Part shown: one piece after another, positions 9,887-15,395 of the stretch
Layout of the letters: every line of letters starts with the position of its first letter
Numbering within the stretch: the first letter of the stretch is position 1
Origin: an uncultured candidatus Porisulfidus sp.
Lineage (GTDB): Bacteria; Pseudomonadota; Gammaproteobacteria; Poriferisulfidales; Oxydemutatoraceae
DNA: 64,000 nucleotides
Direction of reading: 5' to 3'
NCBI GenBank assembly: GCA_965200865.1
Contig: CBDAVG010000002.1
Coordinates: 1,097,838 to 1,161,837, forward strand
Made by a program: the position numbers and the translations under genes
Notes under the pieces: model-generated
What the model was told of the DNA's origin: nothing
Databases searched by the model: none
The model's input: only the letters and a program-made list of their open reading frames with translations

Positions 9887-11140
9887 CTATTTATTTGATT
9901 GTGATATCCTCTGCTTGGCGTTATTATTATCAGCATGTTTGTTCTCCGGTCGATGTCTACAGTCTTTGCCGCAACCAAAGATCCACTCCAGTCCGTTTTC
10001 ATGTGCAATCCCATGTAGTATCCCTTGAAAAAGAGCAATTGGTTTCCTGATATCAGCACCGTTGTGTTTGTAATCAGCTTTGTACAAACTCATTACTTTG
10101 TATAGTAGGTCTACAGGATAATACTGAACCATCAGTCTAAGTGGTTCATCCTCGCCACGTATACCCGTTGCCTGTCTGATATCAGAGACTAAAATATCTA
10201 TTGCACTGTCATCATTAACAGGCTTTAAGAAATTCTTATGACTTCTCTTGGAGGGCGGTATTGCCCTTATAACCAATTTCCAATCAGATTTATCGGATGT
10301 TTCTGCTATTTCTAATTGCAATGCTGCACCATTTGAGATTTTCTTACCTTGAAGTGCTTTTATAAGATTCAATAGTTCTTGCTTTCTAATCTTCTTATAG
10401 TTGTATCTTTTACTATCAATATGCAGTATTTCCCTTATGATTTTTGTTGCTGTTAATTCTCTTATTGTTGCTTTCGCTAAAAAAACATCTAATGCAGTAT
10501 AAAGAGCAGCCGCTTTATAGCCTGAAATTGATAACATTTCTTTTAGTAAAAACGGTTTAGTCTTGCCGGCAAGTAAGTTTTCAATAATATATTCATTGAA
10601 TGTGATTTTATACATGGACTTGAAGCGATTTTCTTTCCTACGATATGAAAGATCCAAATACTGCATATTGCTCAATATATTAAAACCACTCACCAAATCT
10701 TTGGTATAATCTTTCGTGCCATAGGACTGAATCCAAGTGAGATTAGTGCTTTTCAAAACGTCAAGGCTTGTTTTCAATCGTTTCTCAAACATGCCGGACG
10801 ATTTGATTCCTAAGACTCTAGCCATTTCTCGTCCCGAAAAAGAGAATTTTCCGTTTGTAGGTTTGCCTTTATCCTCCCACAGTTGAAAGAGAGCATATAG
10901 AATCTTCTGATCATAAACCGTCAGAGTTCTATAATCTTTGGCTGGCCTGATCTCTATTGAAGCGGATATTTTTTCACCGTTGGTGATGTGTTTCTTAAAA
11001 TCAAACCGCCGCGTGTCATGTAAATTCTTAGCATTCGGAGGAATAAACAAAATATTAGCAAATTTAGCGATATTTGCCTCTGGATGTAGAGGAGCCTCTG
11101 ACTGTTCTAATATATTTTTATTTTCCTTTACACTAGCCAT
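9887..11140 (-). CDS. rep: Plasmid-type replication initiator (Rep, winged-helix iteron-binding type), 417 aa, immediately downstream of the iteron array.
   Basis: Thirteen 23-bp direct repeats lie in its promoter region; the overall sequence looks like RepA/Rep_3-type initiators. Assignment is by context plus weak sequence recall. Confidence 0.5.
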   Translation of the reverse strand: MASVKENKNILEQSEAPLHPEANIAKFANILFIPPNAKNLHDTRRFDFKKHITNGEKISASIEIRPAKDYRTLTVYDQKILYALFQLWEDKGKPTNGKFSFSGREMARVLGIKSSGMFEKRLKTSLDVLKSTNLTWIQSYGTKDYTKDLVSGFNILSNMQYLDLSYRRKENRFKSMYKITFNEYIIENLLAGKTKPFLLKEMLSISGYKAAALYTALDVFLAKATIRELTATKIIREILHIDSKRYNYKKIRKQELLNLIKALQGKKISNGAALQLEIAETSDKSDWKLVIRAIPPSKRSHKNFLKPVNDDSAIDILVSDIRQATGIRGEDEPLRLMVQYYPVDLLYKVMSLYKADYKHNGADIRKPIALFQGILHGIAHENGLEWIFGCGKDCRHRPENKHADNNNAKQRISQSNK

Positions 11141-11150
11141 TTTACTATAA

Positions 11151-11450
11151 CCTTTCTTGTATGCTCCCTGCGACCTTTTCTGTACCCTCTATGCGACCTT
11201 TTCTGTACCCTCCCTGCGACTTTTTCTGTACCCTCTATGCGACCTTTTCTGTGACCTCTCTGCGACCTTTCTTGTATGCTCCCTGCGACCTTTTCTGTAC
11301 CCTCCCTGCGACCTTTCTTGTATGCTCCCTGCGACCTTTTCTGTACCCTCCCTGCGACTTTTTCTGTACCCTCCCTGCGACCTTTTCTGTACCCTCCCTG
11401 CGACTTTTTCTGTACCCTCCCTGCGACTTTTTCTGTACCCTGTCCTAAAA
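11151..11450. repeat. Iteron array: about 13 direct repeats of 23 bp (consensus CTGCGACCTTTTCTGTACCCTCC, with a variant CTGCGACCTTTCTTGTATGCTCC), with no spacers.
   Basis: Exact 23-bp periodicity of GCGAC starts (11170, 11193, ... 11423) read from the sequence. Confidence 0.85.
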
Positions 11451-11604
11451 AATATAGACTAGATATCAAAGACTTAAGTGTGTTTTTATGAGGCGGAGTA
11501 GTACGGTTAAGCATTGTACGTATAGGCAGTACGCATTTAAGCGCGTTACAGCTAATGCTGTAATAACGCATATTTATACTCAAATCTTTGTTCATAGACA
11601 TCAG

Positions 11605-13064: not shown

Positions 13065-14412
13065 CGTCTTTGTTCCATATCCAATCGTAATCTTTTGATC
13101 GTGAGATTTTCCAATAAAAATCTAACAAGTCTAAATAACTTGTCTGCGTTTTACTGTCAAAAGTCTTATAAACTTGACCCAAATCACTTCCTGGAATCGG
13201 CATATCAAGTTCCCTGTATGCAGCCTCAAAACCTCCCTTGATAAGTGCAACGTAAGGCTCCACTAATTGCTGAGGCATATAAGTCTTCAATACATCTGCT
13301 GATGCATCTCTTATACCACTGAGTTGAACTAGTTGCCACCATCCCCATGAAGCGCGTTTTCTGCTGTTCTCTTCTTCAATGGCTTCTATTCGTGGGAAGT
13401 TAATAACTATATAGCCGAGACCAGTCGGAATTTTTTTAATGAAACTAAAGAGATGACACCCTTTTGCAAAAATCGATGCATTCTTATACATTTCTTTACG
13501 TGCCGCATTGATATCAAGCTCATCTATTTCTCCGTAAGATTGGCTTTGATGATTAAACTTGTTACCAATAACTATTTTTGTTTTTCTATTTTTAGAGTCT
13601 TGAGGTACATTTATTGTTTGAGAACTTGGTTTAGCAGATTGTTTGTAAATTAAAATAACTTCATTTACTTCCGATAAAAATTCATTCACCGAAAATTTAT
13701 CAGAATCATTTTCTCCAAGGAGTTTCAAGAATAAGTCTTGCTTATTATCTTTTTCACATTTGTTGTATGCACTATTCAGTTCACCAACTGCATTCTGACC
13801 TAAACCAGCTTTCAGTGCTTTTGGAATGATGTCTTTAACTTGAATTACAAAGCGATAGACCACATACAATTTGGTAGCAGATGAAGCTGGATATCCTGCC
13901 TTTTGCATGTATTTGACAAACTTTGAAAGCGGTATCTTTTGTGAACCATTTTTAAGACGATCTATAATCTTTTGTGCACCAAGACAGCGTTCAAAAAATG
14001 TATAACCATTGCGCAAGTCATTTTCTTTAAGATGTTTTAACAAAGCATCCAGTTCATTTGTCCATAAAAACTCTCTGCATGGGATATGCTTTAGTTTTAA
14101 CTCTTTAGCAATCTTAAGACGAGTATTCCCACCTCCGAAGACCATCCAACGATTAGTGCTGGGGTTTTTGGCAACAGGAATAGGGGTTTCTATACCGGCT
14201 GTTTCTATCGACTCCTTTATCTCTTCGTATTTGTCATTGGCTTTCACGCGAACGTCATCAATAAATAAATCAATATCATCGGGTGATAGAAAAATCAGTT
14301 GTTCACCAATCTGTATCTCTCCGCAACCATTTCCAATCCGACTGGAAGACTTGACAGCAGGTTTCTTAACTTCGAACGAATTGCCCCAATCTGTTTGTAC
14401 TTTACGAGTCAT
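13054..14412 (-). CDS. parB: ParB-like nuclease-domain protein (452 aa), overlapping parA by 4 nt.
   Basis: N-terminal ParB/Srx-like region (VFGGGNTRLKIAKEL); operon with parA. Confidence 0.55.
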   Translation of the reverse strand: MTRKVQTDWGNSFEVKKPAVKSSSRIGNGCGEIQIGEQLIFLSPDDIDLFIDDVRVKANDKYEEIKESIETAGIETPIPVAKNPSTNRWMVFGGGNTRLKIAKELKLKHIPCREFLWTNELDALLKHLKENDLRNGYTFFERCLGAQKIIDRLKNGSQKIPLSKFVKYMQKAGYPASSATKLYVVYRFVIQVKDIIPKALKAGLGQNAVGELNSAYNKCEKDNKQDLFLKLLGENDSDKFSVNEFLSEVNEVILIYKQSAKPSSQTINVPQDSKNRKTKIVIGNKFNHQSQSYGEIDELDINAARKEMYKNASIFAKGCHLFSFIKKIPTGLGYIVINFPRIEAIEEENSRKRASWGWWQLVQLSGIRDASADVLKTYMPQQLVEPYVALIKGGFEAAYRELDMPIPGSDLGQVYKTFDSKTQTSYLDLLDFYWKISRSKDYDWIWNKDDAD

Positions 14413-15245
14413 GCTGCAACTTTCAATATCTGACGATAAATTATTGGCGCAAGCGTAGAATCAAGTTCAATAATTAAATTACAAATTGCTGCCGTTGCCG
14501 AATTATCTTTTCTAATTTCCCGAGGTGTCTCAATAGCATCAACCGACACATGATGAGAAGCCGCTACTGTGAAAGCGGTTCTGCGTGGAATTCTTACTGG
14601 AACAAAAGAAACTTTATCGTGATAATGATCTTCCAAATAAGATATAATTTGATAAGCATCTCTTGTGCGAGTGACGTTATTAAATATAACTTGCGGTTTT
14701 GCTATTGATAAGCCACCAAAAGTTGCTAAGTCTTCTAATTCATCAAACAATCCTAGAGTATTTCTAAGAAGTTCGTATGCCGAAAGTTTCTCAGGCGATG
14801 TGGGACACAGTGTGTAATCTTTTGCAGCTAGTGCAGCCATCTCTGTGACTGCGCCCGTTGATCCCCAAGAATCAATTATGATGTAGTTGTAACATTTCGA
14901 TTTGGCAACAATATCTAATTTCTTATGTAGCAATAAACGCCCCGCAGGATTACGAGAAATGAATCCTTCCAGTTCACCAGTGTCATCATTACTTACGACA
15001 ATATCTAAATTAGAAAATTGTGTTTTGCATATAGCCTTGCGCCAATCATTAGATCGTAAAAAGTGATCTATTCCTAATTCGCCCTGAGATTTAATTTTGA
15101 AATAGTCCGACAATGTTGGTTGACGCAAGTCAACATCAATCATCAGTACTTTTTGGTTTACTCTAGCCAGTATACCGGCTATATTTGCACTCAGTGTAGT
15201 CTTACCTGTGCCGCCCTTGGTTGACAATAGAACAATTCTTTTCAT
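14409..15245 (-). CDS. parA: ParA/Soj family partition ATPase.
   Basis: Deviant Walker A KGGTGKTT at the N-terminus; 278 aa. Confidence 0.85.
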   Translation of the reverse strand: MKRIVLLSTKGGTGKTTLSANIAGILARVNQKVLMIDVDLRQPTLSDYFKIKSQGELGIDHFLRSNDWRKAICKTQFSNLDIVVSNDDTGELEGFISRNPAGRLLLHKKLDIVAKSKCYNYIIIDSWGSTGAVTEMAALAAKDYTLCPTSPEKLSAYELLRNTLGLFDELEDLATFGGLSIAKPQVIFNNVTRTRDAYQIISYLEDHYHDKVSFVPVRIPRRTAFTVAASHHVSVDAIETPREIRKDNSATAAICNLIIELDSTLAPIIYRQILKVAA

Positions 15246-15305
15246 ACAAAATTTTCATTTTCGCACCAAACAATTAATTAAGCTCGAAAACCAATGATTT
15301 TACAT

Positions 15306-15395
15306 TGGCGGAGAGGGAGGGATTCGAACCCCCGGACCGCTTGCGCGGTCTTCGGTTTTCAAGACCGATGCCTTCGACCACTCGGCCACCTCTCC
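15306..15395 (-). tRNA. tRNA-Ser (anticodon UGA), 90 nt, with a long variable arm and encoded CCA.
   Basis: Reverse complement reads GGAGAGGTGGCCGAGTGGTCGAAGGC...CTTGAAAACCG...GGGTTCGAATCCC...CTCTCCGCCA. The mobile-element-like region lies on its 3' side. Confidence 0.9.

Follow-up and report, generated by a model that had tools for sequence, protein, structure and literature searches.

Plasmid-like maintenance of integrative elements is already established. In the integrative and conjugative elements (ICEs) related to pKLC102, PAPI-1, PFGI-1 and ICEclc, which share the mating-pair formation type MPF_G (the 'GI-type' type IV secretion system, T4SS), integration takes place at tRNA 3' ends and parA (soj) stands first at the tRNA-side edge. 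pKLC102 moves between chromosome and plasmid and reaches up to 30 copies (PMC7685784). Among 200 ICEs, 16 encode theta-replication proteins, one of them of the MPF_G type, and in MPF_G ICEs the integrase and the genes for partition and replication occupy opposite edges (PMC5587801). SGI1 keeps oriV and repA while integrated and fires only when a helper is present (PMC10954446). SXT/R391 is likewise an integrative element with plasmid-like maintenance (PMC4489591). Here, we describe a comparable locus in a stretch of 64,000 nucleotides, hereafter the window, from an uncultured candidatus Porisulfidus sp. of the Gammaproteobacteria (assembly GCA_965200865.1, contig CBDAVG010000002.1, positions 1,097,838 to 1,161,837 of the forward strand). 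Leftwards from a tRNA-Ser(UGA) gene, it carries on the minus strand the genes parA, parB, X (a small signal-peptide protein) and traU, followed by an array of 23-bp iterons and by rep, a gene of 417 codons.

We regard it as probable that positions 1-15305 of the window are the tRNA-proximal arm of a mobile element that inserted at the 3' end of tRNA-Ser(UGA), belongs to a lineage related to pKLC102/PFGI-1/ICEclc (MPF_G) and carries an added theta replicon. These 15.3 kb are the portion of the element inside the window, and the element extends past coordinate 1. An earlier note, made from the sequence alone, had given the gene order and the minus strand from the tRNA leftwards, and we found the features where it had placed them; most of these genes overlap by a few bases. 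It had also proposed integration at the tRNA 3' end, with which our results agree. The G+C content is 0.37-0.41 from the tRNA to coordinate 1 and about 0.46 on its right side, where the core genes pdxA, surA and lptD are found. The tRNA is the only one in the window (ARAGORN, Rfam), and Rfam matched no other family there. We compared the locus with others, labelled L001, L002 and so on, from metagenomic and other contigs; sequencing depth is 2-6x in several of the metagenomic ones, where frameshifts are possible, for instance in parB of L001, a contig cut inside that gene. In L002, the tRNA gene beside the block parA-parB-X-traU-iterons-rep-DUF5131 is tRNA-Arg(tct), not tRNA-Ser(tga), and the proteins of the block share 56-79% identity with those of the window (72-79% without X and DUF5131; 72% for ParA). 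Homology begins 9 nt past the CCA in the window and in L002 alike, with the alignable sequence CATTGGTTTTC...CGAAAATGAAAATTTTGTATG (also quoted as CATTGGTTTTC...GAAAATGAAAATTTTGTATG). Two different tRNA sites have thus been used by the same element end, which, together with the drop in G+C and the core genes beyond the tRNA, supports site-specific integration at tRNA 3' ends.

The backbone of the element is that of a pKLC102/PFGI-1-like element in which traU and X have relocated beside parAB, and this is the normal architecture of the lineage. The order parA-parB-X-traU recurs in L002, L011 (40.9 kb) and L012 (61,974 bp, 27x, contig name ending in _c), and parB-X-traU is common to L001 and L006 (ENA ERZ25067984 ctg13524_6x_c, 21,960 bp, named as circular). 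Before parA-parB-X-traU, L011 and L012 encode a type IV pilus operon, a DUF3577/STY4534 'ICE replication protein' and PFL_4669, with a single-stranded DNA-binding protein (SSB) in L012 too, all of which are also points of likeness with the pKLC102 family. After traU come RadC, DprA and further genes of the leading-region type, to which L012 adds ArdC and Exo_endo_phos; RadC and Exo_endo_phos also occur within positions 1-2700 of the window. The family also has an ICE-type ParB, which the TIGR03764-like protein of the window resembles, and a TIGR03757/TIGR03756 pair, whose order is matched by X and TraU. The kinship with pKLC102/PFGI-1 seen in the earlier note is supported. The window element differs from that family by having a dual winged-helix Rep with 13 cognate iterons and by carrying TraU and X directly after parB rather than inside a T4SS cluster; its ParB and X score below the family cut-offs, and the integrase, relaxase and T4SS core lie out of view. 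The unit formed by Rep, iterons and DUF5131 is an add-on specific to the sub-lineage of the window, L001 and L002. A gene of 304-311 aa that follows traU in L011 and L012 was tried as a relative of Rep and rejected (hhalign probability 0.06%, no Pfam match).

The earlier note had read the array and the 417-aa gene as a true iteron replicon, and this reading is supported by four independent lines: the fold, remote similarity, comparative anatomy and natural controls. An AlphaFold model of Rep contains two helix-strand-helix-helix-hairpin modules, that is, the two tandem winged-helix domains (WH1-WH2) of iteron initiators. The only significant Foldseek matches of the model were RctB (E 1e-12) and RepE54 (E 2e-4), and a search of the PDB sequences with the Rep profile gave no meaningful match to any solved initiator. 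The match to PF10134 ('replication initiator protein A') reached 23.5 bits, below the 27-bit cut-off; of the two assignments that profile searches were to check, TraU was placed above a curated cut-off and Rep obtained this sub-threshold match only. In a tblastn search against plasmids, Rep matched only genes annotated as 'replication initiator protein A' (22-28% identity, E 1e-5 to 4e-7). The family is large: an exhaustive HMMER search found 1437 representatives at E<1e-3 and 261 at E<1e-30, and some of its distant members touch Rep3_N, Rep3_C and RPA marginally. Scanning genome contigs with the alignment of six Rep sequences returned two short contigs only (L007 and L008), and scanning viral contigs with Rep and TraU returned no match. 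Like RctB, RepE (F), pi (R6K), RepA (pPS10) and RPA (PF10134), Rep is encoded beside 22-23-bp repeats. It lacks domains 1 and 4 of RctB. Additional parts are a beta-hairpin region at the N-terminus and, at the C-terminus, a helical domain without counterpart in RepE or pi. After this domain, at residues ~386-399, five of the six homologues carry the motif W-x-x-x-C-G-x-x-C-x-H-R-P-E-N.

At 11150-11441, Tandem Repeats Finder (TRF) reported a 23-bp unit that is repeated 12.7 times without indels (score 423); in register, 12 complete units and one half-degenerate unit span 11143-11441, and the last ends 3 nt before the ATG of rep. The iterons fall into two subtypes, AGGGTACAGAAAAGGTCGCAGGG and AGCATACAAGAAAGGTCGCAGGG. 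Twelve copies of the 14-nt core ACARRAAARGTCGC lie in the array and none elsewhere in the 64 kb, a number well above the 0.19 expected by chance. Homologous arrays stand in the same place in L001 (15 near-identical units) and L002 (6 units), so that the close subgroup has contiguous arrays of 13, 15 and 6 units reaching the start codon. Extending the comparison to more distant relatives, seven loci (the window, L001-L005 and L007), which include every relative with available flanking DNA, have 22-23-bp repeats beside a Rep gene, in 3 to 15 copies (3+2 in L003, 3+3 in L004, 6 in L005, 3+3 in L007). The sequence of the repeat differs between Rep subgroups and changes with the divergence of Rep. 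A perfect DnaA box, TTATCCACA, lies inside the arrays of L003, L004 and L005, and A+T-rich 14-mer repeats precede the array in L003, L004 and L007. Judged by sequence, the layout of these relatives, with iterons, DnaA box and A+T-rich repeats, is the canonical one of iteron origins. Compared with described iteron initiators, the array of the close subgroup is distinguished by its long contiguous form (13-15 units) abutting the start codon and by the lack of a DnaA box.

Plasmid centromeres are often made of tandem direct repeats (sopC, parC). Accordingly, one could take the 23-bp array, which lies at the end of the par operon, for a parS-like centromere bound by ParB or for a pure incompatibility and titration locus, especially as it has more copies (13-15) than an origin needs and no DnaA box. 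The comparative data make this very improbable. Equivalent arrays accompany Rep homologues that have no par genes nearby (L003, L004, L005 and L007), three of them enclosing a DnaA box, whereas the loci with parB-X-traU and no Rep (L006, L011 and L012) lack such iterons. The array thus tracks Rep, not ParB or TraU, and its repeat sequence changes as Rep diverges, which argues against a centromere. We consider even less credible that the repeats encode a protein. An open reading frame (ORF) of 157 aa (11128-11601) runs across the array with a period of 23 aa, and in L001 and L002 such an ORF was called by gene prediction. However, open frames arise automatically, because none of the six frames of the unit holds a stop codon, and two more ORFs are open on the other strand. 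Moreover, the number of copies (6, 13, 15) and the period (22 or 23 nt, not a multiple of 3) vary freely, and the distant arrays lie outside ORFs.

Upstream of the iterons of this replicon there is a conserved, putative control region of ~165 bp, made of a 69-bp non-coding core (11501-11569) and an A+T-rich stretch. The core starts with a hairpin of 7-bp stem (TTACAGC-ATTA-GCTGTAA), after which come three CGTAC(A/T) motifs similar to the 5' half of an iteron. Its identity across the window, L001 and L002 is 86-93%, even though synonymous sites are saturated between the window and L002. It is absent from L006, which has TraU and no Rep. The A+T-rich stretch is found at the same position in L001 and L002. 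These features suggest that the core may be a control or accessory-site region, and that the A+T-rich stretch may serve as the unwinding element.

The ORFs of the block are all intact and translationally coupled. TraU exceeds the curated cut-off of TIGR03756 (236.6 against 188.35 bits), matches the Pfam TraU profile with 119.9 bits and aligns end to end with the TIGR03756 protein of pKLC102 (34% identity, BLASTP). It is the best-conserved protein of the block, with 93-95% amino acid identity to its counterparts in L001 and L006, compared with 82% for Rep and 76-79% for X. The ratio of nonsynonymous to synonymous substitution rates (dN/dS) is 0.04-0.26 across the five genes with a measurable dS: 0.04-0.08 for TraU and 0.11-0.26 for ParB, X, Rep and DUF5131 (0.11-0.17 for ParB, 0.16-0.26 for X). 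The dS of parA was saturated and this gene was left out. ParB, X, TraU, Rep and DUF5131 are thus under purifying selection. The best match of the ParB-like protein is TIGR03764, with 98.7 bits against a cut-off of 143.75, and parA lies at the tRNA-side edge, 60 bp from the tRNA. The assignment of X is less direct. It matches TIGR03757 weakly (E 0.0047, 17.1 bits against a cut-off of 73.2), as do its orthologues in L010 and L011, and its comparison with the TIGR03757 protein of pKLC102 gave an hhalign E of 0.003 and a probability of 10%. X lies directly upstream of a TIGR03756 gene, as in pKLC102, and its size and signal peptide fit, so that it is probably TIGR03757-like, mainly on the grounds of synteny. 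The PFL_4709/PFL_4710 pair proposed in the earlier note hence stands above cut-off for PFL_4710 (TIGR03756), and for PFL_4709 it stands on a weak match and position. The description of TraU as a remnant in a decayed element is not supported, since the gene is full length, has a dN/dS of 0.04-0.08 and occupies its normal position in the lineage.

Several observations weigh against an integrated iteron replicon of this kind. Even with one mismatch allowed, no DnaA box was found close to the arrays of the window, L001 and L002, and we saw no convincing sigma-70 promoter or Shine-Dalgarno sequence for rep, the scan for promoters and terminators giving nothing above shuffle expectation. Stretches of 13-15 contiguous iterons are far above the need of a minimal origin and may therefore form mainly a negative-control or incompatibility locus. 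Rep reached no curated family threshold and matched neither NCBIfam nor Rep_3 (PF01051/PF21205), and its structure model, built from a 6-homologue alignment, is of moderate confidence (pLDDT 71.6). The circularity of L006 and L012 is taken from the contig names only. Finally, profile searches of the ORFs tested in positions 1-15300 revealed no integrase, relaxase, type IV coupling protein (T4CP) or VirB4 domain, in line with the earlier note as regards the integrase, and the 3' end of the tRNA, a direct repeat of which (attL) that note had proposed to seek left of the window, has no copy elsewhere in the 64-kb window. The missing integrase and att repeat are expected, because the partition and replication module of MPF_G ICEs sits opposite the integrase (PMC5587801).

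The same gaps could be read as decay, with the element an immobile remnant of an ICE/plasmid hybrid, its genes leftover and its origin dead. In addition to the absence of an integrase and an att repeat from the window and of a DnaA box from the array, few transfer genes are visible, and L010 (ENA ERZ25069786, a 126.5-kb contig) shows that X-TraU can persist as an isolated fragment. Yet the ORFs are intact and translationally coupled with a dN/dS of 0.04-0.26, the synteny is identical in independent metagenomic contigs, the block stands at two tRNAs, the iteron arrays are homogeneous (15 near-identical units in L001) and the non-coding core is conserved. We therefore hold decay to be improbable.

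A further account takes the element for an integrative mobilisable element in the style of SGI1. It would have no mating apparatus of its own. Next to its own replicon and partition genes, it would carry only some stand-in T4SS subunits (X and TraU; in L006, TraG_N), to be fitted into the MPF_G apparatus of a helper ICE or plasmid for its own transfer or for evading exclusion. A direct precedent is SGI1, in which oriV and repA occur together with substitutes of traN, traG and traH and the helper activates rep (PMC10954446, PMC5389848). Our element shows just two MPF_G genes, away from their usual cluster, whereas in pKLC102 the TIGR03757/03756 genes lie between a VirB4-type ATPase and TraG_N. 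There is no other transfer gene in the 15.3 kb here or in the ~6-10 kb past rep in L001 and L002. The 22-kb L006, named as circular, has ParB-X-TraU, TraG_N and ParA with no visible T4SS core; L010 keeps X-TraU alone among core genes; and the purifying selection on TraU is very strong. On the other hand, L011 and L012 have the same parA-parB-X-traU order in larger elements (40.9 and 62 kb) with pil, ssb, PFL_4669 and the ICE-replication gene, which are typical full-size pKLC102-like backbones. The unseen part of the window's element may hold a T4SS, and no mobilisation genes or helper-responsive promoters were identified. In the visible part of the element (1-15300) the search for the MPF_G set (VirB4/TraC ATPase, T4CP, TIGR03745-03752, TraG_N, MOBH relaxase) gave none. 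The earlier statement that the other T4SS genes are missing consequently applies to the 15.3 kb in the window and cannot be made of the whole element. On balance, we find the SGI1-style account rather unlikely.

The parallel with SGI1 covers several points: both are integrated islands with their own oriV (a predicted one here) and an iteron-type initiator, a few orphan T4SS subunits and a link to partition, and the replicon of SGI1 is silent when integrated, as that of the window element may be (PMC10954446, PMC5389848). SGI1 differs in that it integrates at trmE, has an IncN2-type RepA, supplies TraN, TraG and TraH to an MPF_F apparatus and borrows the ParAB of its helper, whereas the window element has its own; dependence on a helper is a feature of SGI1. 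A tentative and rather unlikely extension would make the parA-parB-X-traU-iteron-rep block an SGI1-like parasite of MPF_G (pKLC102/ICEclc-type) elements: a tRNA-integrated island with its own RctB-like replicon and ParAB that remodels the apparatus of its helper by means of substitute TraU/TIGR03757 subunits (and TraG_N in L006), and whose Rep family (1437 representatives) would be the nearest structural relative of RctB on the plasmid side.

Under the preferred reading, that of the tRNA-proximal arm of a pKLC102-related mobile element with an added theta replicon, the sequence suggests how the element may excise, fire its origin, control its copy number and transfer. An integrase encoded at the far, unseen end would excise it; Rep monomers would then attach to the iterons, melt the A+T-rich DNA beside them and bring in the replisome of the host, and ParA and ParB would segregate the circular copies. 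Long arrays titrate and handcuff Rep in P1 incA, F incC and other iteron plasmids. Here, the long array reaching the start codon of rep could likewise titrate and handcuff Rep, block the expression of rep and keep initiation rare. If the array imposes such quietness, the origin could sit harmlessly in the chromosome. TraU and X would be working periplasmic subunits of an MPF_G mating apparatus encoded further left or by a helper. Integrated iteron replicons are tolerated in the classical cases of Hfr strains and integrative suppression. The claim that an integrated iteron origin is normally deleterious was overstated, as SGI1, pKLC102, Hfr strains and theta-type ICEs precede this one. The plasmid-like maintenance of the excised form in SXT/R391 and ICEBs1 follows the same concept (PMC4489591), but relies on relaxase-driven rolling-circle replication from oriT, whereas this element encodes a dedicated theta-type Rep and carries iterons.

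These results do not overturn current views, and their worth lies in annotation and in testable hypotheses. What is new is modest: an initiator family outside the curated models with a fold nearest to RctB, a long iteron array abutting a start codon and an X/TraU pair linked to parAB. The locus is a clear case of the continuum between ICEs and plasmids, in which a pKLC102-like backbone, whose members have been described with origin-like repeats and no Rep, has gained a dedicated theta replicon. The Rep family may bear on how the initiator of the secondary chromosome of Vibrio originated from plasmid Reps. TraU and X form a detachable and strongly conserved pair that travels with the partition genes, which hints at the hijacking or stabilising of MPF_G mating systems.

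Table 1. Features of the tRNA-proximal arm, from the tRNA leftwards (positions in the window).
Feature	Position	Strand	Evidence or remark
tRNA-Ser(UGA)	15306..15395	-	ARAGORN; Rfam tRNA 63.8 bits; 3' end towards the element, presumed integration target (att side)
Junction from tRNA CCA to parA, 60 bp	15246..15305	-	Element-type sequence starts <=9 nt past CCA
parA, small ParA/Soj-type partition ATPase, first gene of the operon	14409..15245	-	Pfam AAA_31 89.7 bits, CbiA, MipZ, ParA
ICE-type ParB-like protein, 452 aa	13054..14412	-	Start overlaps parA stop; TIGR03764 ICE_PFGI_1_parB 98.7 bits; ParB_N weak
X, 147-aa signal-peptide protein, probably TIGR03757-like	12621..13064	-	Translationally coupled to parB and traU
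TraU-like MPF_G subunit, TIGR03756, 345 aa, intact, signal peptide	11605..12642	-	TIGR03756 and Pfam TraU matches
Non-coding 69-bp conserved core	11501..11569	-	Hairpin and three CGTAC(A/T) repeats; candidate rep operator/promoter or accessory sites for Rep or host factors
68% A+T stretch, 59 bp, directly before the first iteron; candidate DNA-unwinding element	11442..11500	-	Sequence and composition
Iteron array, 13 x 23 bp, head-to-tail	11143..11441	-	TRF, register, core-motif count
rep, 417-aa iteron-type initiator, two winged-helix domains, C-terminal CGxxCxHRPEN motif	9887..11140	-	
DUF5131 (Gp37/Gp68-like)	9150..9863	-	Pfam DUF5131 339 bits; PADLOC PDC-M41B 397 bits; synteny in L001 and L002
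DndC-like PAPS-reductase-fold protein (modification module of the earlier note)	7959..9146	-	TIGR03183 301.3 bits (cut-off 290.4); PADLOC DndC 330.8 bits
85-aa ORF	7672..7929	-	

To the left of rep, the element carries genes that vary between relatives, and small ORFs continue leftwards down to 7081. DUF5131 follows rep in all three close relatives (7959-9863 with its partner in the window, 4584-6550 in L001, 5597-7310 in L002). Its partner in the window and L001 is a short DndC-like protein, in place of which L002 has a C5 DNA methylase. Further dnd genes are absent from the vicinity, and the DndC-like gene is variable cargo. DUF5131 (PADLOC candidate PDC-M41B/M30B) and its partner are possibly a DNA-modification or anti-defence pair. 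Further left, a protein of 986 aa (3947-6907) shows weak similarity to N6-methylase/mad2 only. Over the first 440 residues it shares 72% identity with the product of the cut gene that ends L002, and it is absent from L001; it is variable cargo as well, perhaps a type IIG-like enzyme. With the leftmost ORF of the window, a scan of genome contigs gave no match. Scanning metagenomes with the same ORF returned only L013, a phage-like contig (ThyA, ribonucleotide reductase) with a match of 30% identity.

A structured non-coding region of ~250 bp is repeated with 75-94% identity at 190-445, 914-1174 and 7400-7680 (minus strand) of the window and at 8678-8857 of L001. It contains the palindrome GAAATTTCCCCNNGGGGAAATT and lies directly upstream of a 139-aa ORF (442-861), of RadC (1171-1767) and of a 131-aa ORF (7081-7476). 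Its folding as single-stranded DNA gave z values of -3.9, -8.6 and -5.6. We rejected the copies at 190-445 and 914-1174 as Frpo-like single-strand promoters, because these significant folds consist of several short hairpins and not of one long hairpin. The repeat may instead be a shared operator or leader for leading-region-type genes. In the Rep-less relatives, 21-23-bp tandem repeats (~4 copies) followed by TATCTTA-type A+T repeats occur just upstream of RadC (12001-12156 in L012, 17224-17429 in L011), and could be an alternative origin-like or regulatory site.

Two of the other relatives deserve mention. Besides ParB-X-TraU (with a TraU 93% identical to that of the window) and TraG_N, L006 encodes a ParA/ribbon-helix-helix (RHH) pair and an IS605-type TnpB, and ~3.5 kb of it are a 346-bp tandem repeat (10.3 copies), of which a further 2.7 copies lie elsewhere. 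In L010, a PFL_4669/AcaB-like gene, X and an intact TraU (67% identical) stand at 8764-11038 among dnaK, grpE, recN, fur, purH, purD and rho, and the 10 kb that flank this trio on each side are free of further mobile-element genes.

On the other side of the tRNA, positions 29945-35225 of the window, downstream of rimP-nusA-infB, have a G+C content of 0.38-0.41. A PLD-family (NgoFVII-like) nuclease is encoded there together with three ORFs that have PBECR2 nuclease domains, and the patch may be a small islet for defence or toxin functions. At 36109-42201, a region of strongly negative GC and AT skew, three large ORFs (684, 635 and 618 aa) follow one another on the minus strand and have no Pfam match at E<0.001.

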